This document shows positions 2,534-58,555 of a stretch of DNA of 64,000 nucleotides, piece after piece. Both the position numbers and the translations under genes were made by a program. The number at the start of each line of letters is the position of its first letter. Positions within the stretch are counted from its first letter, which is position 1. The notes beneath the pieces are model-generated. The model was given only the letters and a program-made list of their open reading frames with translations. It was not told the DNA's origin and did no database searches. Source of the stretch: Escherichia coli (GTDB lineage Bacteria > Pseudomonadota > Gammaproteobacteria > Enterobacterales > Enterobacteriaceae); assembly GCF_024700885.2 (NCBI RefSeq), contig NZ_CP117016.1; one strand, 5' to 3'.

Positions 2534-3319
2534 TCATTCGTCTTCTGAATCAGGTGTAATGATCTTTACAGAACCATTCCGGCAGTGCGTAACATAATCT
2601 GCCGGTAACGGACGATCGCTAATCAGAACGTCAAATGCAGAGATCGGTGCGAGGCTGGCAGAGGCCACTTCATCGAACAACGCGTGGCGGGCGAGCAAAA
2701 TTTTCCGTAGTCCACGGTTCATCGCTTTACGCTTAGTGGCAAGATCTTCAGGGTTAAACCAGCTGACGCCAAAGTGATTATGCACACCGCTGGCGGAAAT
2801 AAATATTTTTCGCGGATTGAGAGAGTCTAATGGCGAAGAGTTACTGGCATCGTAAAAAGCATCACTTCTGGCACGATACGTACCACCACAAAGTATTGCT
2901 GTTACATTAGGCTTTTCATTCAACGCAACAAAGACGCGATGTGAGTAACAGATACCGGTGAAGGTGATTGCATCCGGGATCATGCTTATAACGAGTGGTA
3001 TCTCCTGACCATTATCAAAGAAGATCAGATCATTTTCATTAACCATTCCGGCAGCCAGAATTGCAATAGGTAAGTCATCACGATGATTTTTTGGAACGTC
3101 ATGGATTACTGGCATGGATGGCGCGGGTTTATTCACCATTACAATATAGCCACCCAGTAGGGTCAGTGGCAGAGGTTCATCTTCCTGATGGAGATCGCGA
3201 CGAATAGTCATTACAGAAACTTCCAGCATTCGCGCTGCGTCTTTCAAATGGATTCTGTCGGTTTTCTTAAGCAGTTCCATCAAACGTCGGATACGCTCTT
3301 TTTGCTTCGTTTCCATCAA
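2534..3319 (-). CDS. deoQ: DeoR-family transcriptional regulator, deoxyribose operon regulator DeoQ-like
   Basis: 261-aa ORF with N-terminal DeoR-type HTH (…LEVSVMTIRRDL…) and sugar-binding C-domain; divergent from a kinase-permease-mutarotase operon as in the Salmonella/pathogenic E. coli deoQ-deoKPX locus. Confidence 0.65.
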   Translation of the reverse strand: MMETKQKERIRRLMELLKKTDRIHLKDAARMLEVSVMTIRRDLHQEDEPLPLTLLGGYIVMVNKPAPSMPVIHDVPKNHRDDLPIAILAAGMVNENDLIFFDNGQEIPLVISMIPDAITFTGICYSHRVFVALNEKPNVTAILCGGTYRARSDAFYDASNSSPLDSLNPRKIFISASGVHNHFGVSWFNPEDLATKRKAMNRGLRKILLARHALFDEVASASLAPISAFDVLISDRPLPADYVTHCRNGSVKIITPDSEDE

Positions 3320-5897: not shown

Positions 5898-6911
5898 ATG
5901 AGTACGCGTATTTATTTGTGGCGGGCGCTTTTTGGCGAAAAACCTCGTATCTTGCTGGAAAATAGTGATTTTACTGTCACGTCTTTTCGCTATGACAGTG
6001 GTGTCGAGGGGCTTAAAATTGCAAACAGTCGTGGACATTTAATTATTCTTCCCTGGATGGGGCAGATGATTTGGGATGCGCAATTTGATGGACACAGTCT
6101 CACCATGTGCAATATGTTTCGCCAGCCTAAACCGGCGACAGAGGTGATAGAGACCTATGGCTGTTTTGCCTTTCATTCAGGTTTGCTGGCTAATGGCTGC
6201 CCATCTGCGGAAGATACTCATCTGCTACACGGTGAAATGGCCTGTGCCGCGATGGATGAAGCATGGATGGAATTAGAGGGAGATATGTTACGCCTTACCG
6301 GGCGTTACGAGTATGTAATGGGGTTCGGGCATCATTATCTGGCTCAGCCAACAGTGGTCCTTCACAAATCCTCTACATTGTTCGATATTAAGATGGCCGT
6401 AACCAATCTGGCTTCTGTAGATATGCCACTACAATATATGTGCCACATGAATTATGCATATATACCAAATGCTACGTTCAGCCAGAATATACCGGACGAA
6501 ATATTAAGGTTGCGTGAATCAGTACCTTCGCATGTTAATCCCACCGCCCAGTGGCTGGCGTTTAATCAACGAATTATGCAGGGAGAAGCCTCTCTGTCGA
6601 CGCTGAATCAACCGGAATTTTATGATCCAGAAATAGTCTTCTTTGCAGACAAACTGGACGCTTACACAGATCAGCCAGAGTTTCGCATGATCGCTCCCGA
6701 TGGCACTACGTTTGTTACTCGTTTCTCCAGTGCTGAACTAAATTATGTGACACGCTGGATCCTTTATAACGGCGAGCAACAGGTAGCCGCCTTTGCATTA
6801 CCAGCAACCTGTCGACCTGAGGGGTATCTTGCCGCGCAACGTAATGGCACGCTGATTCAGGTTGCACCGCAGCAAACGCGCACTTTTACAGTCACCACAG
6901 GTATTGAATAA
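5898..6911 (+). CDS. deoX: DeoX-like protein (putative deoxyribose mutarotase / aldose-epimerase-like)
   Basis: 337-aa ORF immediately after the permease, same strand, 11-bp spacing; operon context. Confidence 0.55.
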   Translation: MSTRIYLWRALFGEKPRILLENSDFTVTSFRYDSGVEGLKIANSRGHLIILPWMGQMIWDAQFDGHSLTMCNMFRQPKPATEVIETYGCFAFHSGLLANGCPSAEDTHLLHGEMACAAMDEAWMELEGDMLRLTGRYEYVMGFGHHYLAQPTVVLHKSSTLFDIKMAVTNLASVDMPLQYMCHMNYAYIPNATFSQNIPDEILRLRESVPSHVNPTAQWLAFNQRIMQGEASLSTLNQPEFYDPEIVFFADKLDAYTDQPEFRMIAPDGTTFVTRFSSAELNYVTRWILYNGEQQVAAFALPATCRPEGYLAAQRNGTLIQVAPQQTRTFTVTTGIE

Positions 6912-6934
6912 CCACATTTACGCGCTTATCGCTA

Positions 6935-7160
6935 AGGTAAGCGCCATTCTGCCTGCAGAAATCTACCTGCCGAAGTGATGCTTCAGTGGTAAGCGGCTCA
7001 CCAAAACCGTATTGATATTTACTGAGAGGCCAGCTCAACTATTTAGAGCAACAGATCGTGTACCCGGTTTGCCGGCCAGTCCTAGATATGCTCAATGACA
7101 TAACGCATCCATTTTTCTGGCTCCACATCGTTCAGACGGCATGTGCACAATACCAAAACG
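6935..7160 (-). mobile_element. IS66-family remnant (transposase C-terminal fragment plus terminal-repeat-like GTAAGCG motifs)
   Basis: Minus-strand translation gives …LAVLVLCTCRLNDVEPEKWMRYVIEHI*, closely paralleling the IS66 TnpC C-terminus seen at 28776-28982; two GGTAAGCG motifs at about 6937 and 6988. Confidence 0.4.
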
Positions 7161-7677
7161 GCAAGCGTTTGAGGCGAAGCACATATATACAGGACAGCTT
7201 TATCGTCATTGCATTACCGAAACGGCTTTCATCGCTGCAAGGTTTTTCTTTGCCGGAATGTATCCGGTCAGCTTATAACCTGCTGATAACCTGCGCCCTT
7301 AAACATGCGGGCTGCAGCCTGTTGAGCCTGCCTGAAATGAGCTAGGATTAGGTGAAACACCTATCCATCTTGGTGTACTGTACATATGAAGCATGTGCCT
7401 TGATGCAGCTTGTAGCGATTTGTATGCAACCGATGACATTAATCCGTAAGACATGGGAAAAGATAGCAACTGAGATCCTAAGTTTGAATGTTATCACGCC
7501 TGCGTTTGAGAAACTTCGTTGGAAAAGTAACCTCGGTAAACCCCCGTGCCCTGAGCTCATTCCGGAGATGCTGTCATAGTGACCGTCTTGCTATTGGTGG
7601 GAATTGGAGACTGAATGTTTTGACAAGACAGTCCGGGAAATTCTGGGTGTAATCATATAAGACAGGTGATATTGCGT

Positions 7678-7753
7678 TCTCCAACCCTTTAGCTCAGTGG
7701 TAAGAGGACTCATAATCGCTTGGTCGCTGGTTCAAATCCAGTAAGGGCCACCA
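7678..7753 (+). pseudogene. Degenerate tRNA-Ile(CAU)-like sequence (ileX/ileY-like), probably non-functional
   Basis: Recognisable D-arm (TAGCTCAGTGG), CAU-containing anticodon loop (CTCATAA), variable loop, T-arm (GCTGGTTCAAATCCAG) and CCA end, but the 5' strand of the anticodon stem is missing and two acceptor-stem positions are mismatched. Confidence 0.45.
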
Positions 7754-8633
7754 TCACACACTGCCACTGGCCCATTGCGCCATGCCCGGCACATATCAGT
7801 CACAGAGCCTTTCGGGGATAATTTGCAGAGTGGTCTGGCTGACTTTCTCTGTAGGCAGATCGTTCCCGCTTGATAGCTCATCCCCCAAAGAAACGTCACG
7901 ATATTTGGTATTTTCAAAATTCAAAAAGAAAACCCGCAGAGTGGCAACAGAGATTAAAAAGTTTGAGAAACGCGATCTGGCACAGGCGGTGATTGGTGTT
8001 GGAGTGATGGTAGATTTTATCAGCCGGATAATGTCGGTTCTGGCTGATAGCTGGGGTTGTTGGTGTGGTCTTCCTATTGATGAAAAAACAAGCAATTACT
8101 TGGCATATTATCTGTAACACTTTAAAACTGTTAAGAAGATCACAATTCATTATGTTTATTATTGTCTGGCCGGAGGGATATTTGTTAAAAAGTGCGCCGT
8201 GTGGTGAATCCCCCTGTGCGGTGGGGCGACTGGTGTACATAGCATTTATTATGTTATGAGCGAAGCCTACGCGGGTTCAGTGACACCGACTGAATTCACC
8301 GGGAGGCACCCGGCACCATGCAACAGACGCAAGTTAGGCTAAGCCTTATACCCCTGTAAGTTTTTTACAGGGTTTTTTTGTGCACAGAAAACCCCCAGCT
8401 AGGCTGGGGGGGCCGGAAAGCTTTCAGCTTTGAGCCAGTTATTAAAACTCTGAACCGGTTCCTGGCACGAATATCATTCCCGGCCTGCGCTTTGATTATC
8501 TCAGCGACTCCGGCGGGAACTTCAGCCGCAGTCTGAATCTTTCGCAGGAATTGGGCGATTATTTCAAAGTCAAAGCAGGGGTTGCCCGAACCTTTAAAGC
8601 CCCAAACTGTACTGACCCCAAAAAGTTGGACAG

Positions 8634-9486
8634 TTAAACACGAGGCATATAGGTCTGATTCCGATATTCAATTGGAGTCAGACCTTTTAATTTCAGGCTA
8701 ATTCTTCTGCTGTTGTAGTATTCAATATATTCCGTAACAGCATCCTTCAGTTCGCTTATATTACTGAACTCATCAAGATAAAAACACTCCGACTTTAAGG
8801 TTCCAAAGAAACACTCCACCACAGCATTATCCAGACAATTGCCTTTTCTGGACATGCTTTGTTTAATACCATGTTCTTTAAGGATATTTTGATATCTTCT
8901 CATACGATACTGCCATCCCTGGTCAGAGTGCAGAACAGGATGCTCGTGAGGATTAAGCATTTTTGAATGCCTGATCGAGCATATTCTCAACCATGTTCAT
9001 CACTGGTCTTTCCGAAAGGCTGTAAGAAATAACATCATTGTTGAAGAGATCTATTACTGGAGACAAATACAGCTTGCGCCCATTGACTGCAAATTCAGTA
9101 ACATCGGTAACCCACTTCTCGTTTGGCCGCGTAGCCTTGAAATCTCTTTGGAGAACATTGGGGGCGGTTTGCCCTACCTCTCCTCTGTAAGAGCGGTATC
9201 GCTTGACCTTAATCGCTGCCTTAAGTGAGAGGGTTCCCATCAGGCGCTGAACAGCTTTATGGTTAATCTGTTTCCCTTCTCGATGAAGAGACAGCGTTAC
9301 CCTACGGTATCCGTATCGGCCTCTATTCTCATGATAAATCTCACCAATACGCTTTTTAACGTCCGCATACTTGTCAGGCTTGCTGAGAGCCTTTAGATGG
9401 TAATAAAACGTACTGCGCGGTATCTCCGCAGCCCTGAGAAGCTCATCAAGAGGATAAAACTGCCTTAGCTCGTTGAGTACTTTCAC
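8634..9486 (-). pseudogene. insK: IS150 OrfB transposase (InsK-like), apparently frameshifted
   Basis: Two overlapping ORFs in different frames (9486->8953 and 8990->8634) covering DDE integrase-core sequence; total span 853 nt, one more than an intact 852-nt orfB would need. Confidence 0.5.
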
Positions 9487-10004
9487 TTTTTCGTGGAATG
9501 AGCTAAGGCTTTCAGCTTTTTTAGATACACAAGCCGCGTTTCAAGAAATCGAACTTGCCTTTCAAGATCCTCAATGCGTCGGTCTTTTGACAGCTCCAAT
9601 GCTGATGCCGCTTTTTCTGGATCAACTGATATTGCAATGTTTCTTTTGGTGCCAATCTTGAGCGCGCGTAAACCAGCTTCTCCGCGCTCTTCATAAACCT
9701 TCAGCCACCTGGCTACAGAACCACTACCAGCAAGCATAAAGTGAGCAGCAGCCTGATTAAGGGACATGTGCTGCTCGATCACAGCTTTCACGACCTTAAT
9801 ACGCAACTCTGGATCAGCACTAACACCTTTAGGTTTGGGAATTAAACCTTTTTCTCCATGTTTTTCATAGAGGGCAACCCATGTCCTGACCTGGATTCGG
9901 GGGGCACCAAAACGTGCCGAGATGATCCTGTAACCATCATCAGTAGTGAAGTAGTGATTCACGACTTCAAGGCGCTTTTCAAAAGGGTATTTTGGCTTTG
10001 ACAT
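9483..10004 (-). CDS. insJ: IS150 OrfA (InsJ-like, HTH protein)
   Basis: 173-aa ORF MSKPKYPFEKRLEVVNHYF…; ATGA overlap with orfB start. Confidence 0.7.
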   Translation of the reverse strand: MSKPKYPFEKRLEVVNHYFTTDDGYRIISARFGAPRIQVRTWVALYEKHGEKGLIPKPKGVSADPELRIKVVKAVIEQHMSLNQAAAHFMLAGSGSVARWLKVYEERGEAGLRALKIGTKRNIAISVDPEKAASALELSKDRRIEDLERQVRFLETRLVYLKKLKALAHSTKK

Positions 10005-10966
10005 ATCAGGGGCTATTCCATTTCATCGTCCAACAAAATGGGTGCAGTACAAACCTGTATCAATCCAGTGAAGGCTATCTGCTCTACTCGAAAGGCAATG
10101 GCTGTCCAAAAGATATTACATCAGGCGGGTGCTACCTGATCGGTAATAAAGATCTCGATCCGGAAATCAGTGTCAATAAAGAAATTGGGCTGGAGTTCAC
10201 CTGGGAAGATTACCACGCAAGTGTGACCTACTTCCGCAATGATTACCAGAATAAGATCGTGGCCGGGGATAACGTTATCGGGCAAACCGCTTCAGGCGCA
10301 TATATCCTCAAGTGGCAGAATGGCGGGAAAGCTCTGGTGGACGGTATCGAAGCCAGTATGTCTTTCCCACTGGTGAAAGATCGTCTGAACTGGAATACCA
10401 ATGCCACATGGATGATCACTTCGGAGCAAAAAGACACCGGTAATCCTCTGTCGGTCATCCCGAAATATACTATTAATAACTCGCTTAACTGGATCATCAC
10501 CCAGGCGTTTTCTGCCAGCGTCAACTGGACGTTATATGGCAGACAAAAACCGCGTACTCATGCGGAAACCCGCAGTGAAGATACTGGCGGTCTGTCAAGT
10601 AAAGAGCTGGGCGCTTATTCACTGGTGGGGACGAACTTCAATTACGATATTAATAAAAATCTGCGTCTTAATGTCGGCGTCAGTAATATCCTCAATAAAC
10701 AGATCTTCCGATCTTCTGAAGGGGCGAATACCTATAACGAGCCAGGCCGGGCTTATTATGCCGGAGTTACCGCATCATTCTGATCGTAGTGTTTCAGGCG
10801 CACTGCCCGTGTAAAAGCGGGCAGTGTTTAGTGGCTTAACTCATGACAACCTGCTGTGTAATTTGCGTTTTCACCACTGATATCTAACAGTGCCTGGCGA
10901 AAGGAGGCATTAAACATTGGCCCGTGTCCCAGGTTGGGGAAATCCCAAAATACGGCATTGACGCCT

Positions 10967-11785
10967 TTATCTTTCAGTATAGTGAGGGGGGGGATAAATT
11001 TTCGACAGCACCCCGACAGCATGCGTTTCCCGGTTATCACCCTGTGTCGCCGAGCCTTCCATTATCGCCAGGTGTTTGGCGAAGAATTGCAGAGGCTCAA
11101 CCGCCGTAACGCGGCTTAGCAAAGCATCATAACCTCTGCCCAACGACGGGCTGGCGCTGTAGTACGACCGGAAGTAAGAGGAGGACAGCCAGGAATCCAG
11201 CACGAAGAGGCCGCCGTAGGAGTGCCCCCATAAGCCGCGGCGTTGCCGATCGATATTCAGTCCCTGTTCCACTTTTGGGGCAATACGCGTTTCCAGTAAC
11301 TGGCGGAAGTTGTTGCTGCCACCACTCTTACGGCTAAAACGCCCTGAGTGGAGATCTGTTTTTCTGCTTTCTGTTGCTGGCATATAGTCGTAAGCCCTGC
11401 TGTTGAGATCGAAAGGGAGGTTGGTCTGATACCCGACAGCCACGATCACTGGCGGTGTTTTTTCTGACAATTGTTTGAGCAGTTCGTCATCCAGGCGGTC
11501 CATAACTGCGTTACCGTCAAGCATATATAAAATCGGGTAACCCGATGCCGGTGCGGTTGTATTCGGCACGGCCGTCCATACCCGATAATGGCGTGTGCCA
11601 TCGACAGAGTCGAAAGAGGTGGCGCTGAAATGGTAAAACACGGAGCCTTTATCGGCTATATTCGGCCCCAGTGGCCGCATATCCGGCTTCGCATAAACTT
11701 GCGCACTACAGATAAGGGTGAGGCAAGAAAGATGAAAGAAAATCGCTTTATGCGGGCGTGTTGAGCGATACTCGCGGGCATACAT
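10967..11785 (-). CDS. iroE: Salmochelin periplasmic esterase IroE-like (alpha/beta hydrolase)
   Basis: ORF with signal-like N-terminus and GHSYGG serine-hydrolase motif; between iroD-like gene and convergent iroN; real start may lie upstream of first ATG. Confidence 0.6.
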   Translation of the reverse strand: MYAREYRSTRPHKAIFFHLSCLTLICSAQVYAKPDMRPLGPNIADKGSVFYHFSATSFDSVDGTRHYRVWTAVPNTTAPASGYPILYMLDGNAVMDRLDDELLKQLSEKTPPVIVAVGYQTNLPFDLNSRAYDYMPATESRKTDLHSGRFSRKSGGSNNFRQLLETRIAPKVEQGLNIDRQRRGLWGHSYGGLFVLDSWLSSSYFRSYYSASPSLGRGYDALLSRVTAVEPLQFFAKHLAIMEGSATQGDNRETHAVGVLSKIYPPPHYTER

Positions 11786-11869: not shown

Positions 11870-13099
11870 TCAACCCTGTAGTAAACCAATCCCGTCAATC
11901 AGTGCACCGCGCCACCATGCGTAATCGTGACCACCGGTGTAGATTGCGCAATGGCTTTCGACGCCAGCGGTAATCAGCCGCTGGTGAAGTTGCTGAACGT
12001 GAGGCACTGTCGAACCTTCCAGCGATCCCACGCACAGGCTGATACGCACGCCCTGCGGTGGGGCAGAAAGCAGATGCTCACTCACCCATGAGGTATCGGT
12101 TTCGCTGAACAAGCCTGGTCGACTGGTTCTTTCTGGCGTCCACCACATTGAAGGAGAGTGGCTGAGCACCAGACCGAACGTTTCCGGTGCGTAACGAGCC
12201 CCCATTAGCGCACTGATCCCGCCGAGGCTCTGCCCGGCCAGCACTGTGCGCGAACGGTCTGCCCACTGACGCTGCGGTTGTTCAGCGCGGATCATCGGCA
12301 GCAGATGTCCTGCGATATCCTTTATCAGCTTGCTGCGCCCGCCGAGTATCTCAGTGCGTTCATGTTCATTAATGTTGTCAATGCCCAGTACAGCCACGGG
12401 CACGATGCGCCTGTTATTTATGGCGGCGTCAATTGCCGCGCATACGCCAAGGTGATCAAACCAGGTTTCACCATCGGGCAGCACGACCAGCCCGAGGGGC
12501 TGAGAAATATCAATGTCCGGAATATAGAGCCGAACCTGGCGAGATTTCCCGGCGATAATGCGCATGGAGGTAAGCAGTTGTCCGGTGTGGAAGCCGCCGT
12601 TCCATTCCGACAGGGCGGGAGCTTTATCAAGTGTCAGCACTGATTCCTTTGCGTTTCCCCGAACGTTGATCTCCGGCATTTTGTTTAGCGGATCGGCCTT
12701 TCCGGCGAGGGTGGCAAAACGGCCTCCGGACAGTGCAATCGTCTCAGCCGTAGTGCCGGGGGGGATTTCCAGCAGCGAATAGGAGCCGCAGTAACTTGCG
12801 GGTAAACGCAGTGTCAGTGTCCAGATATCCGTTTCGGGAAGGGCGCTCATCATTCCTTTTTCTACGTGCTCTTTATCCGTCACCCGGTTCAGACGCTGAC
12901 AAACGCCCTGCAGAGGATGTCGGGCGCGCCACAGAAAGGTCACTTCTCGCTCATCTTCCGCTCCTTCGACTGGCGTCACAAGAGGAACATTCAGCGACTC
13001 AGCTTCGCGCCAGAAGTCAGTAAGGTTAGCAATGTGGCCCGCTGCCAGTTGGTTGCGCAGGCTGGCGATAGCAGAGGGATGTTGTTGCATGTTCAGCAT
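11870..13099 (-). CDS. iroD: Enterochelin/salmochelin esterase IroD-like (Fes family)
   Basis: 409-aa ORF with esterase motif GQSLGG; position between iroC remnant and iroE. Confidence 0.6.
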   Translation of the reverse strand: MLNMQQHPSAIASLRNQLAAGHIANLTDFWREAESLNVPLVTPVEGAEDEREVTFLWRARHPLQGVCQRLNRVTDKEHVEKGMMSALPETDIWTLTLRLPASYCGSYSLLEIPPGTTAETIALSGGRFATLAGKADPLNKMPEINVRGNAKESVLTLDKAPALSEWNGGFHTGQLLTSMRIIAGKSRQVRLYIPDIDISQPLGLVVLPDGETWFDHLGVCAAIDAAINNRRIVPVAVLGIDNINEHERTEILGGRSKLIKDIAGHLLPMIRAEQPQRQWADRSRTVLAGQSLGGISALMGARYAPETFGLVLSHSPSMWWTPERTSRPGLFSETDTSWVSEHLLSAPPQGVRISLCVGSLEGSTVPHVQQLHQRLITAGVESHCAIYTGGHDYAWWRGALIDGIGLLQG

Positions 13100-13202
13100 T
13101 CATACTCTTTAAAAATTAAGGATGTCAGTATAAATAATTAAAGCGGCTATTCACGGTACCGCCGCTTCTGACTGTGTTTTTAATACATTACGTGTCCAGT
13201 AA

Positions 13203-14396
13203 CTATCCCGGGGTTTCCTCCTTCATGTTGTGCTGGCGATGGAGCGCAGTACTGCTGACGTTGTCATGCCATAAGCGGGTATAGAGGCCGCCTGCAGATA
13301 ACAGCTGTTCGTGGGTTCCGTATTCCGCAAGTAACCCCTTATCAATAACGGCAATCAGATCGCAGCGTTGCGCGGTGGTCAGACGATGTGCAACAATCAG
13401 CGCCGAGTGCTTCCCGGCATGCACGACATCTGTTAACGATGACATCAGTCGTTCTTCGGATGTGCGATCCAGACATGACGTGGCTTCGTCGAGCAGCAGG
13501 ATGTGAGCATTCGCCAGTTGCGCGCGGGCCAGCGCAATCAACTGGCGCTGACCTGCGGACAGATCGGCTCCGCCGTTATTCACCGGTGTCCGGAATCCCT
13601 GCGGCAGATTGCACACCATCTCATACAGCCCTGCCCGCTGTGAGGCAATTTCAACGTCTTCATTGGTGGCGGATGCCGTGAATAACGAATGTTTTCTGCA
13701 ATATCACTACTAAACAGTGCTACATCCTGATCGACAAGCCCAATCTGGCGACGATACTCAGTGAGCGAGGCATCATCGAGCATTTGCACACCGATTCTGA
13801 TGTTGCCGTGCGTGGGGAAATACAACCCGGCAATCAGCTTAATCAGCGTCGACTTACCCGCACCGCTGCGACCGACGACCGCGACAACCATTCCCTCAGG
13901 GATCGTCAGGGTAAGTTTGTTCAGAGCTGGCTCGTGACTGGCGGGATAACTGAACGTGACCTCATCAAGATGCAGTGCACCGGTGACGGGGAGGAGCGAA
14001 GAGGACCCGAGGTCCTCAGTGCCTTCTGTCGCCAGTAGTTCATCAATATGTTTGCCGCTGGCTGTCGCCTGCTGCCAGGCGTTGACAATCCTTGATAACT
14101 GCTGCCAATCCTCGATCGAATAGAGCGGAATACGCAGTTGCGCGGAAGCGCTCCGATAACGCGCGCAGCGGGACGCCCTCCAGTTCCTGCTGATTATGCG
14201 ATTGCACGACGCGCAGGCCGGAGACTTTCTCCTGCAGGGTGCTTGTTGACTTTGCCCGTGCCTGTGCATAAGAAGGGGTACTGAGGCGGCGATAAATCAT
14301 GGTTGCCATTGCGGCCACTGGCACTGTGCTTAATGCCGTCAGCGCCAGGAACGGGTCGAGCCAGAACATGGTGGCGGCGATTGCGAACATTGTCAC
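13203..14396 (-). pseudogene. iroC: ABC exporter IroC, 3' remnant, frameshifted
   Basis: Three consecutive ORFs in alternating frames carrying Walker A (GRSGAGKST), ABC signature (LSAGQRQ) and Walker B (ILLLDEATS); only about 400 C-terminal codons of a much longer exporter; no iroB-like gene upstream. Confidence 0.55.
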
Positions 14397-14922
14397 CAGA
14401 CTGGTGGCCGCACCGGTAAGGCCGTTTTGCAGAAAGCGGGCGAGAGAGTCTACATCCCCATTTACCGTCTTATATCACTGGTGCTGGCAGACAGGAGTTT
14501 CATGAAACAATAACCCGAAATCACCAGTGTCGTTCAATGTGGCAACTGTTGGAAAAGGTTCGTCACTTTATGGTTACCGTCAGCCTATTCCCCGGTGGAA
14601 TGCATGGGCTAGCTAAAGTGTAGCAGTATTAGGATCTGTTATTTAGATTCGCAGGTGGGGGAGTGGGTAACGGATAATTCTACCGTAGCTAAACACAATC
14701 CGATAAATAAATAGCCCTATTGAGTTGTGGGTGGATGTAGTGATAATTGATGGATAAAAATATTATTTTTTTTGATGCTGATACCTTAATGGTTAATGAA
14801 CCAAATGGAATAATCTTAGTGTGTTGCTTTTTTATCTGACGTTAATTCCGCACTTGCTTATTATGCACAGAAAACATGGCGATAGTTTGCTAGGGTTATT
14901 TTGAGGAAAGTAAAGTATAATT

Positions 14923-15690
14923 ATGAAATGTATGAAATGGATGTGGATTGTGTCATCAAAAATACTTTTATCCCTTAGTTTTTTTTCATTTGCAAATGAA
15001 CAAGTGTTTGGAAATGTTGAAAACAATTCAAAGGTATTTTCTTTGCGTTTAGATACAACCCGTGTTGTCTATAACCAAGGTTCGTCTGGAGAAACATTGG
15101 CAGTCATTAATGAGCATGATTATCCGATATTAGTTCAGGCAGAGGTGCTGCTTGAAGACCAAAGAACTCCAGCGCCTTTTGTAATAACGCCACCACTGTT
15201 TCGGCTTGATGCTCTACAATCTAGTCGTCTTCGTATTATTCAAACTGGAGGTGATTTCCCGACAGATCGTGAAACTCTACAGTGGGTTTGTATAAAGGGG
15301 ATCCCGCCGAAAGTTGATGATAAGTGGGCTGAGGAAAATAGTAAGAATAAAGATGGTACAGATAAAGTAGCTCTAGACATACAAGTTTCTGTTAAAAGTT
15401 GCATTAAATTATTTGTCCGTCCGAAAATGGTGAAAGGTCATCCAGATGACGTTGCCGAAAATGTAAAATGGCAGAAGGTTGGTAATAGGTTGAAAGGAGT
15501 AAACCCAACACCGTTCTATATAAATCTTGCGGAATTGAAAGTGGGCGAAAAAGAAATACTGGAGCGTCATTATATAGCGCCATTTGGCTCTTATGAATAT
15601 CCTATCGATATGAATTGGAAGGGGGGGGTTACATGGAGAATAGTGACCGATTATGGTGGGATCAGTAACCAATTTGAAGCAAAGCTTTAA
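14923..15690 (+). CDS. Fimbrial periplasmic chaperone (PapD-like; AggD/AfaB class)
   Basis: 255-aa, signal peptide, chaperone-like fold sequence; first gene of chaperone-usher-invasin-pilin operon; very AT-rich. Confidence 0.65.
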   Translation: MKCMKWMWIVSSKILLSLSFFSFANEQVFGNVENNSKVFSLRLDTTRVVYNQGSSGETLAVINEHDYPILVQAEVLLEDQRTPAPFVITPPLFRLDALQSSRLRIIQTGGDFPTDRETLQWVCIKGIPPKVDDKWAEENSKNKDGTDKVALDIQVSVKSCIKLFVRPKMVKGHPDDVAENVKWQKVGNRLKGVNPTPFYINLAELKVGEKEILERHYIAPFGSYEYPIDMNWKGGVTWRIVTDYGGISNQFEAKL

Positions 15691-15708
15691 GCTTGATGAA
15701 TTTTTTTT

Positions 15709-18315
15709 GTGAATAAAATTATGAAAGAATACATCTGTAATGCCTCTCTATGCAGTACATCTTTGTGTACTCAAAAAAATAAGCTCTCATATACAACATT
15801 ATTTATAATAATTATATCTTCATTTTTTTATGTGGGGGATGTGGCAGCACGTTCGTATTCGTTTGACGCATCATTATTAAACGGAGGTGGTAAAGGGGTA
15901 GATTTGAGGTTACTTGAAAATGGAGGACAACTACCTGGTATCTATCCAGTTGATATTATTTTGAATGGTGCCCATGTTGAATCAAGAGATATGTTTTTTC
16001 ATACAGGGAGAGATATACATGGAAAAGATTATCTAAAGGCCTGTTTGACCAAGGAAATGTTAATACGTTATGGAGTAAAAGTTGAAGAATATCCCGGTCT
16101 TTTTCGAATTGATAGTGAAAAGGAACGAGGTAGAGATATTTGTGCTGACTTATCAGTAATACCTCAAGCTACAGAATATTATCGATTCCTATCACAGCAA
16201 TTAATAATTGGAATTCCGCAGGTGGCAATTCGTCCATCATTGACAGGAATTGCACCTGAAGTAATGTGGGATGATGGTATCGATGCATTTGTAGTGAATT
16301 GGCAGGCGGAAGCGAGTCGTTTTGACTATAGAGGCTACGGCAGGAATTCTTCAGATAATTTTTGGTCCAGTTTTGAACCGGGGATTAATATAGGCGCTTG
16401 GCGCCTCAGAAATCTAACTACTTGGAATAAATCATCTGGACAATCGGGTAAATGGGATAGTTCATATATACGGGCTGAACGTGGATTGAACAGCATTAGA
16501 AGTCGTTTGACTTTAGGTGAAGGCTATTCTCCTGCGGATATTTTTGACAGTGTTCCTTTCCGGGGAGGAATGTTAGGAACTGATGAATATATGATTCCAT
16601 ATAATCAGCGGGAGTTTGCGCCAGTGGTAAGAGGAATAGCTCGAACTCAAGCCCGAATTGAAGTACGTCAAAATGGGTATCTGATACATAGTCAGATAGT
16701 TGCACCGGGGGCTTTTGCTTTGAACGACCTTCCGGTGACAGGCTCCAGTGATGATTTACAAGTGGCAATTCTGGAATCAGATGGCACTATACAGTCCTTT
16801 AAAATACCCTTCACTTTGCCGGCTATTGCTCTACGTGAAGGATATCTAAAGTATAATGTAACCGTAGGGCAATATCGGCCATCGGATAGTGGGGGGGAAA
16901 AAGCATACTTGGCGCAATCGACTGTTATGTATGGTTTACCATGGGGGGTGACGGCATTTGCTGGAGTTCAGGGGGCCGAACATTATCGGGCTGGTGCACT
17001 GGGGTTAGGATTGTCGCTGGGGAATTTCGGTGCTATGTCACTAGATACCATTTATTCTCGAGGGCAACAAAAGGGATATGATTATGAAACAGGACAAACT
17101 TGGCGTATTCGTTACGACAAGTCCTTTGGACTGACAGGAACCAGTTTTGCGGCTGCGAGTTATCAATATTCAGGTGAAAATTATCACACATTAGCGGATG
17201 TTTTGAATACTTATAATAATGTCACTAGCCTCATAGACAGGAATTTTGATAACAAAACTCGTCGGATTACTATGAATATAAACCAGCCTCTTGGCCGTTG
17301 GGGGTATGTGGGGTTGAATGGAGGACGTGATGTATATCGTAGTAAACCAAATCAAGATTATATTGGAGCGTCTTATAGTACTTCATGGAAAAATATTTCC
17401 CTTTCATTAAATTGGTCACGGAATCTTAATCTTGGGAACTGCAACGGTAGACGTTTCTGTACAGAGGATAATTTCAACATGTGGATAAGTGTTCCTCTGC
17501 AGCGCTGGTGGGGGGGATATGATAATGATATCTATGCCACGGCACAGATGCAGCGTTCAACCAGACAAAACTCCAGTTATGAAGTAGGCTTGAGTGGACG
17601 CGCTTTTGAAAGAAAATTGAACTGGGATGTTAGTGAGCAGATAGTACCAGGTAGCAAATATGATGCAGATACAGGTCGGTTAAAGTTACGTTGGTCTGGA
17701 ACCTATGGCGAATTGGCGGGAATGTATAGTTATAATACTAACACCCGTCAGATGAACCTAGGGATGTCTGGAAGTATGGTTATGCATAGCGAAGGTCTAA
17801 CTTTCGGTCAGAGAACTGGAGACACGATAGGCTTGATTGTTGCTCCGGATGTAGCAGGGGCTTCAGTCAGCGGCTGGCCTGGTGTAAGTACAGGCTCCCG
17901 TGGATATGGGGTGGTAGGTTATGTATCACCATACCAGGAAAATGTCCTCACACTGGATCCGACGACTTTCCCTGAAAATGTAGAAGTCCCACAGACAGAT
18001 AGTCGTGTTGTTCCGACGAAAGGAGCAGTTGTCCGGGCTGAATTTAAGACCCGAGTGGGAAAACGTGCTGTGCTGAATCTGATCCGTAAAGATGGAACGC
18101 GTTTACCATTCGGTACAGTGATAACCTTGGAAGGAAAAGTATCCGGTTCTGTAGGGGTGGTAGATGACAAGGGGGCTGTGTATCTGAGTGGCCTGTCTGA
18201 AACAGGAAAACTAAAGGCACAGTGGGGAAGGAATAGTCAATGCTATGCAGACTACATTCTTCCAAAAGAAAAGGGGCCAGCCGGAGTTTTTTTAACAAAT
18301 GCGGTATGCATATGA
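15709..18315 (+). CDS. Fimbrial outer-membrane usher (AggC/AfaC class)
   Basis: 868-aa ORF typical usher size, C-terminal cysteine pair; operon context. Confidence 0.7.
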   Translation: MNKIMKEYICNASLCSTSLCTQKNKLSYTTLFIIIISSFFYVGDVAARSYSFDASLLNGGGKGVDLRLLENGGQLPGIYPVDIILNGAHVESRDMFFHTGRDIHGKDYLKACLTKEMLIRYGVKVEEYPGLFRIDSEKERGRDICADLSVIPQATEYYRFLSQQLIIGIPQVAIRPSLTGIAPEVMWDDGIDAFVVNWQAEASRFDYRGYGRNSSDNFWSSFEPGINIGAWRLRNLTTWNKSSGQSGKWDSSYIRAERGLNSIRSRLTLGEGYSPADIFDSVPFRGGMLGTDEYMIPYNQREFAPVVRGIARTQARIEVRQNGYLIHSQIVAPGAFALNDLPVTGSSDDLQVAILESDGTIQSFKIPFTLPAIALREGYLKYNVTVGQYRPSDSGGEKAYLAQSTVMYGLPWGVTAFAGVQGAEHYRAGALGLGLSLGNFGAMSLDTIYSRGQQKGYDYETGQTWRIRYDKSFGLTGTSFAAASYQYSGENYHTLADVLNTYNNVTSLIDRNFDNKTRRITMNINQPLGRWGYVGLNGGRDVYRSKPNQDYIGASYSTSWKNISLSLNWSRNLNLGNCNGRRFCTEDNFNMWISVPLQRWWGGYDNDIYATAQMQRSTRQNSSYEVGLSGRAFERKLNWDVSEQIVPGSKYDADTGRLKLRWSGTYGELAGMYSYNTNTRQMNLGMSGSMVMHSEGLTFGQRTGDTIGLIVAPDVAGASVSGWPGVSTGSRGYGVVGYVSPYQENVLTLDPTTFPENVEVPQTDSRVVPTKGAVVRAEFKTRVGKRAVLNLIRKDGTRLPFGTVITLEGKVSGSVGVVDDKGAVYLSGLSETGKLKAQWGRNSQCYADYILPKEKGPAGVFLTNAVCI

Positions 18316-58467: not shown

Positions 58468-58555
58468 TGGCGGTGAGGGGGGGATTCGAACCCCCGATAC
58501 GTTGCCGTATACACACTTTCCAGGCGTGCTCCTTCAGCCACTCGGACACCTCACC
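58468..58555 (-). tRNA. serX: tRNA-Ser (anticodon GGA)
   Basis: 88-nt; reverse complement reads GGTGAGGTGTCCGAGTGGCTGAAGGAGCACGCCTGGAAAGTGTG…GGTTCGAATCCCCCCCTCACCGCCA with long variable arm; adjacent to ghrA as at the serX locus. Confidence 0.85.

Follow-up and report, generated by a model that had tools for sequence, protein, structure and literature searches.

The window analysed here, a stretch of 64,000 nt of Escherichia coli DNA, carries the following features between a tRNA pseudogene and an interrupted iroN gene (positions are those of the window):

7683–7753, + strand: decayed phage ileZ-type tRNA-Ile(CAU) pseudogene (Rfam tRNA model, 30.7 bits with a gathering score of 29)
7908–8117, + strand: tciA′-′tciB remnant ORF, a partial DUF3927 pseudogene in RefSeq (tblastn, ORF list)
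8162–8191, + strand: candidate sigma-70 promoter of the sRNA (conservation in close relatives only)
8169–8383, + strand: full-length gene of an STnc100-family sRNA (RF02076; Rfam cmscan)
8352–8379, + strand: hairpin 1 and T7, the intrinsic terminator of STnc100 (aligned to the terminal hairpin and U-run of the Rfam model)
8379–8448, + strand: left-end remnant of an IS200 of the IS200C type, about nt 1–70 of 707 (alignment with three IS200C copies)
8392–8410, no strand assigned: hairpin 2, the inverted repeat at nt 12–34 in the left end of IS200 (alignment, exact 19-mer)
8449–8450, no strand assigned: deletion junction that joins about nt 70 of IS200 to the inside of iroN (last position with IS200 homology 8448, first with iroN homology 8451)
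8451–8607, + strand: internal iroN fragment, from about nt 1293 of 2175 (iroN homology)
8608–10051, − strand: IS150-like element of the IS3 family, 1444 bp, inserted in iroN (sequence, ORFs, RefSeq)
10052–10783, + strand: 3′ part of iroN (ORFs, RefSeq)

The segment 8270–8420 had been singled out in an original prediction for two strong stem-loops, described as orphan terminators upstream of the iroN remnant. Both stem-loops are indeed present there. As read directly from the sequence, hairpin 1 is made up of CCCCTGTAA (8351–8359), the loop GTTTT, TTACAGGG (8365–8372) and T7 (8373–8379), its paired arms being CCCTGTAA (8352–8359) and TTACAGGG. Hairpin 2, which had been placed at about 8391–8414, spans exactly 8392–8410 (CCCCCAGC-TAG-GCTGGGGG), and 19 nt separate it from hairpin 1. 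The fold of hairpin 1 reached −11.0 kcal/mol, compared with −4.6 ± 1.8 kcal/mol for dinucleotide shuffles (z = −3.5; none of 200 shuffles was as good). For hairpin 2, a value of −17.0 kcal/mol was obtained (z = −1.9; 8 of 200 shuffles as good); its stability is very high, yet ordinary for its G+C-rich composition and hence not exceptional.

With regard to termination, hairpin 1 has the make-up of a Rho-independent terminator on the + strand, with 4 G–C among 9 pairs followed by T7, and was called on that strand by a generic terminator scan. Hairpin 2 has such a make-up on the − strand (7 G–C among 8 pairs, followed by TTTTCTGT), where the same scan called it with the tail TTTTCTGTGC. On the + strand, no U-tract follows hairpin 2 and the scan made no call, contrary to the original framing. 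Since the three terminator-like sites found in 7000–10000 represent no excess over the 2.9 found in shuffles, the case rests on homology and not on motif counts. The exact 19-mer of hairpin 2, for which 0.00 chance occurrences are expected in the window, recurs unchanged as the left-end hairpin of IS200 in more than 120 other loci. The Rfam scan that had been suggested as a check settled the identification, returning a full-length STnc100 and a partial STnc490. Homology thus assigns each hairpin, the first to a full-length STnc100 gene and the second to the left end of IS200, and neither of them is an orphan.

The STnc100 gene in a lambdoid prophage remnant

The STnc100 match obtained with cmscan scored 136.4 bits, compared with a gathering score of 47 (E 2.6e-31), covered positions 1–206 of the 206 in the model, was not truncated and was repeated in an Rfam scan of the whole window. 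By means of the conserved box CACCGGGAGGCACCCGGCACCA, 109 unique STnc100 relatives were drawn from viral contigs, and a hairpin followed by a T-run was found at the equivalent place in 74 of them, with 18 distinct stem sequences. So many different stems at one conserved position indicate that the terminator has been kept as a structure and not as a sequence. Over the whole 215-nt STnc100 sequence, the fold was not markedly better than those of shuffles (z = −1.7).

A distant BLAST search against phage genomes revealed that 7650–8390 matches lambdoid phages over the tRNA genes, tciA/tciB and the sRNA. The gene order of phages JLK-2012 and Evi is Q, three tRNAs, tciA, tciB and STnc100, followed by esterase and/or holin–lysin genes. 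The upstream half of this order is kept in the window (the ileZ-like pseudo-tRNA, tciA′-′tciB and STnc100), the downstream half being replaced by IS200 and iroN, and this upstream synteny gives STnc100 the location in a lambdoid late/moron region.

The ileZ-like pseudo-tRNA, when judged by eye against the intact tRNA of phage Evi (locus positions 2999–3075), has lost 5 nt from the anticodon stem and reads AACCC instead of GGCCC at the 5′ end of the acceptor; its phage matches are annotated as ileZ or tRNA-Met. ARAGORN found no tRNA at 7683–7753 when 6000–10000 and the whole window were scanned, and this result, combined with the borderline Rfam score, led us to class the segment as a pseudogene. 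It is left unannotated in RefSeq. Within the neighbouring remnant ORF, 7908–8048 fuses the N-terminus of TciA (aa 1–37) in frame to the middle of TciB (aa 18–32), with tblastn identities to phage JLK-2012 of 62% (E 3e-12) and 93% (E 2e-6), respectively. A tblastn and blastn comparison with phages JLK-2012 and Evi detected no remnant of the Q antiterminator or of RusA in the upstream sequence. Given the decayed tRNA and tci order and the absence of Q, the left side is regarded as a scrap of a lambdoid late region, in which the sRNA gene is the sole intact feature. A further stretch, 7309–7565, which RefSeq lists as a partial hypothetical protein with a frameshift, shares about 78% DNA identity with a portion of a gene for a replication protein in Klebsiella phages of 33 kb; it too is a prophage scrap, lying beside the late-region remnant.

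STnc100, a multi-copy sRNA family of Salmonella and E. coli, is described in a 2026 preprint as carried by prophages and as a relative of PasD, with a relation to Stx-type lambdoid phages as well (bioRxiv 10.64898/2026.05.13.724894). EHEC EDL933 carries 11 copies, which are transcribed and one of which was shown by Northern blot (PMC5331693). STnc100 also overlaps EcOnc27/sRNA103 downstream of stx2B (PMC12711010, PMC12370729), and EcOnc27 was reported in the former paper as an Hfq-binding sRNA. Because the prophage Q/pR′ region is gone, expression of STnc100 at this locus would depend on a putative internal promoter. The candidate consists of a −35 element, TTGTCT (8162–8167), and an extended −10 element, TGtTAAAAA (8183–8191), blocks that are conserved in the alignment of close relatives; a consensus promoter scan called no + strand promoter upstream of the sRNA. 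Judging from the known behaviour of the family, the gene may still be transcribed in this strain, perhaps from about this position, and its transcripts would be expected to terminate at hairpin 1 and possibly at hairpin 2.

A different origin for the sRNA, rather unlikely in our judgement, would make hairpin 1 primarily the terminator of the phage moron operon that lies upstream, which is tciAB here and stx2AB in Stx phages, and STnc100 a 3′-UTR-derived or processed RNA; the copy in the window would then be what is left of the 3′ UTR of the disrupted tciA′-′tciB. Such an origin agrees with the missing consensus promoter call and with the short distances involved, as STnc100 begins only about 5–65 nt past the tciB stop in the phages and 52 nt past the remnant ORF in the window, and sits 75 nt after stx2B in Stx2 phages (PMC12370729). 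However, EHEC cultures do transcribe STnc100 copies without induction (PMC5331693), “promoter regions of STnc100” were figured with RpoD and RpoN binding in a Salmonella ChIP-exo study (PMC10794520), and the TTGTCT...TGtTAAAAA block is conserved at the 5′ edge of the family. The choice between this origin and the preferred one, an sRNA gene with a putative promoter of its own, alters where the 5′ end comes from and not the role of hairpin 1.

The IS200 left end at hairpin 2

When 8169–8476 was compared by BLAST with complete E. coli genomes, 8368–8448 emerged as a multi-copy repeat present at up to 20 places per record, and at the three loci examined the repeat continues straight into the tnpA gene of IS200C. 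Three IS200C copies, complete or partial, aligned with the window from about 8379/8380 to 8448 and were unrelated beyond either side. IS200 is 707 bp long, with a terminator inverted repeat at nt 12–34 and a tnpA transcription start near nt 40 (PMC4513863). In the window, the first ~70 nt of the element are about 96% identical to IS200C and the 19-nt hairpin is identical; in the hairpin flanks, AA is kept and the stem-extending TT is changed to GG. The 23-nt left-end inverted repeat at nt 12–34 is therefore present with this TT→GG change.

The gene tnpA (Y1/HUH transposase) is absent, as IS200C homology stops at 8448 and iroN sequence comes next. Missing beyond nt 70 of IS200 are the SD-sequestering stem-loop, art200, tnpA and the right end. 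For lack of tnpA, the segment is classed as an IS200 remnant and not as an element, and with neither tnpA nor a right end the stump is taken to be immobile. STnc490 is the old name of art200, an antisense RNA of the 5′ UTR of the IS200 transposase gene (PMC4513863). Against the Rfam model STnc490 (RF01405), 8390–8476 fell short of the gathering score of 56 with 52.3 bits and matched only the first ~60 model positions; intact IS200 copies scored 143–146 bits. We attribute the score under the gathering threshold to the truncation of IS200, and by this score the IS200 5′ UTR/art200 (STnc490) region does not count as present in the window. In the window, in WCHEC000837 and in S1-SRL-01-C, the model matches the tnpA-bearing (sense) strand, whereas the literature speaks of an antisense RNA; what the model describes thus seems to be the left end and 5′ UTR of IS200 and not the antisense RNA itself.

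Two kinds of candidates were discarded. An ORF of 52 aa with a TTG start (8378–8536), which spans hairpin 2, was dismissed because it crosses the IS200/iroN junction, and weak Rfam matches to Hrs1, anti-hemB, Plastid-ycf2, sR42 and WT1-AS_2 were regarded as chance (E 0.3–5, far below gathering scores).

According to published accounts, the left-end repeat of IS200 is a strong Rho-independent terminator that works in both directions, protects tnpA from transcription arriving from outside and halts about 85% of the transcripts coming from upstream (PMC4513863, PMC5435999), both publications crediting the bidirectional terminator to Beuzon et al. 1999. Without a + strand U-tract, and with TT changed to GG, the terminator activity of this copy of hairpin 2 is uncertain. 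The original suggestion that the stem-loops terminate a small transcript suits hairpin 1, the 3′ terminator of STnc100, and its second suggestion, relics of a deleted gene, suits hairpin 2, whose IS200 has lost tnpA. Nor do the two form a functional pair of one gene upstream of iroN, each of them mapping to a different mobile element.

It is accordingly highly improbable that both hairpins are one tandem or back-to-back terminator unit of a single chromosomal gene deleted upstream of iroN. Their 19-nt spacing and the scan calls on the + strand for hairpin 1 and on the − strand for hairpin 2 do resemble a bidirectional insulator, yet the elements concerned are independently mobile, homology breaks sharply at about 8379, more than 100 loci carry hairpin 2 behind unrelated sequence, and hairpin 1 occurs without hairpin 2 in phage STnc100 copies. 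The further idea of a REP/BIME-type or other palindromic repeat of the host, in place of an IS200 end, is in keeping with a short, G+C-rich perfect palindrome with many copies per genome, yet for hairpin 2 it deserves practically no credence. The homology extends over about 70 nt and includes IS200C-specific sequence to the left and right of the hairpin, the segment runs directly into tnpA at other loci, and it matches the STnc490/IS200 5′ region model.

IS200 insertion sites and intrinsic terminators

All three independent IS200C insertion sites in the alignment have a hairpin and a T-run immediately upstream. A wider survey was based on a search for the exact 19-mer hairpin with one genome per species, which yielded at least 120 matches, very distant taxa included. 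Flanks were scored as terminator-like when a perfect-stem, G+C-rich hairpin was followed by a T-run abutting the IS, and 3000 random positions in the same loci served as controls. Among the matches listed, such a flank was present at 83 of 101 unique IS200-type left ends, compared with 40 of the 3000 controls (1.3%). In these listed matches, the last 8 nt of the flank contained a mean of 5.9 T (1.9 in controls), and the mean fold of the 36 nt before the T-run was −18.1 kcal/mol (−6.1 kcal/mol in controls). The position is also fixed: among the matches listed, the distance from the end of the upstream stem to the IS hairpin was 14–19 nt for 69 of 93 cases, and T(T/G)GT was nearly invariant at −14 to −11. 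On the basis of these flank statistics, IS200 appears to land just after intrinsic terminators, that of STnc100 being one such site.

In E. coli WCHEC000837, IS200C lies directly behind the DsrA terminator (DsrA at 2920–3006 and the IS200 5′ region from 3021 onward, within 2920–3144 in locus coordinates), and this is a second case of an IS200 abutting an sRNA terminator. In Yersinia, IS1541 has been described between pheL and pheA (PMC3082878). No explicit statement of a terminator preference of IS200 or IS1541 was found in the literature searched, which covered part of the literature.

Survival of harmless insertions could account for part of the terminator excess beside IS200, and the fixed register argues for targeting rather than such survival alone. 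We put forward, as a tentative possibility, that IS200-group insertion sequences home near-nucleotide-precisely to the 3′ edge of the T-tract of Rho-independent terminators, in Proteobacteria, Bacillota, Desulfovibrionales, Elusimicrobia and Saccharibacteria, with the sRNA terminators of STnc100 and DsrA among their targets. If the Y1 transposase reads a single-stranded hairpin and T-run, and if this is undescribed, the long-unclear target rule of IS200 would be defined. Real targeting would also account for IS200 being harmless and silent in so many cases, and would mean that IS200 can occupy the 3′ ends of sRNA genes.

The survey also provided two observations on the hairpin itself. Among the matches listed, Oxalobacter, Vibrio, Mailhella/Desulfovibrio, Bacillota, Saccharibacteria and Elusimicrobia all carry the left-end hairpin of IS200 without a single base change, while the surrounding IS sequence diverges; such conservation across phyla suggests either a strong constraint on the hairpin or a recent horizontal spread. 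Moreover, the 19-nt hairpin, CCCCCAGCTAGGCTGGGGG, also ends a different repeated element in Firmicutes-type MAGs, with the flanks ...AATAAGCAT, hairpin and TATTTCTTTAACGGGCGAAGCCC..., and this may be another end of the IS200/IS605 family.

The iroN junction, the history of the locus and known systems

The end of IS200 homology at 8448 and the start of iroN at 8451 point to a deletion from inside IS200 into the middle of iroN, which took the promoter and the first ~430 codons (about 1292 nt) of this gene. The IS150-like element within iroN is flanked by a 3-bp target duplication, AAC (8605–8607 and 10052–10054), and the salmochelin receptor gene is thus inactivated twice, by the deletion starting inside IS200 and by the IS150-like insertion. 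Of the other iro genes, iroE is frameshifted and iroC is frameshifted and truncated beside an IS630 fragment in this lineage (RefSeq; 10967–11785 in the window and 12179–15807 in locus coordinates), and with the rest of the cluster decayed the salmochelin system appears to be non-functional overall.

The island contains a tRNA-Ser(GGA) gene at 58468–58555. Rfam matches elsewhere in the window include two to group II introns (RF00029), in opposite orientation and about 1.4 kb apart (27235–27314, − strand, 53.8 bits; 28751–28830, + strand, 50.9 bits), and one to IS102 RNA (RF00124; 46883–47119, + strand, 72.3 bits with a gathering score of 46).

The exact arrangement of the window was found in 151 of 5,426 complete E. 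coli genomes, and FDAARGOS_1276 is one strain with the identical locus (NZ_CP070157.1, about 4,990,264–4,990,478). In the sister strain S1-SRL-01-C, the same STnc100 is followed by a complete but frameshifted IS200 and then by hypT, and the complete IS200 suggests that the insertion of IS200 preceded its truncation. In one further strain, the IS200 stump is itself interrupted by an IS4.

Taken together, these results make it very probable that 8270–8420 is the seam of two decayed mobile elements, in which the terminator of STnc100 is followed by an IS200 stump fused to iroN. The order of events that we infer has three steps. A remnant of a lambdoid late region would have kept STnc100, at whose hairpin 1 and U7 the polymerase would halt (about 8376–8380), and read-through from the tci remnant would likewise be stopped there. 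The predicted RNA has about 185–215 nt and belongs to a family that is expressed, and reported as Hfq-bound, in EHEC. IS200 would then have inserted directly past the T-tract of STnc100, a position that seems habitual for IS200-type elements. In an intact IS200, its left-end repeat, here hairpin 2, blocks incoming transcription, reportedly in both directions. A later deletion would finally have removed IS200 past about nt 70, the intervening DNA and the first ~1292 nt of iroN, leaving a stump of about 70 nt joined to mid-iroN. In its present place, hairpin 2 might act as a back-up terminator on the + strand, 19 nt downstream of hairpin 1, and, with a UUUUCU tail, as a − strand terminator for transcripts from the IS150/iroN side.

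Both STnc100 and IS200 are already known, and only the target choice of IS200 is a point of wider note. As RefSeq leaves both unannotated, 8169–8383 should be annotated as an STnc100-family sRNA gene and 8379–8448 as an IS200 left-end remnant, which should not be labelled as unexplained terminators or as iroN upstream sequence.

Compared with the known STnc100 system, the locus shares the full-length match in sequence and structure, the 3′ intrinsic terminator and the place downstream of tRNA-tciA-tciB. It differs in being a decayed prophage scrap in a tRNA-Ser(GGA)-associated island, with no Q, esterase or lysis gene, and in its terminator stem (CCCTGTAA/TTACAGGG), which departs from the family consensus. 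An IS200 stump abuts the T-tract, and expression in such a context is a prediction from other family members. With IS200C, the window copy has in common its orientation and its place directly behind the T-run of a host terminator. Unlike IS200C, it is cut at about nt 70, lacks tnpA, art200/STnc490, the SD-sequestering stem-loop and the right end, and carries the TT→GG change.

Group IIC (class C) bacterial introns home just past intrinsic terminators. They offer a working analogy, in which a hairpin and T-run serve a mobile element as a safe landing site, and the homing of IS200, if true, would be the DNA-transposon counterpart of their terminator homing. The mechanisms are wholly different, since these introns are retroelements with a ribozyme and a reverse transcriptase, whereas IS200 uses a Y1 HUH transposase on single-stranded DNA, and the two share no sequence relationship.
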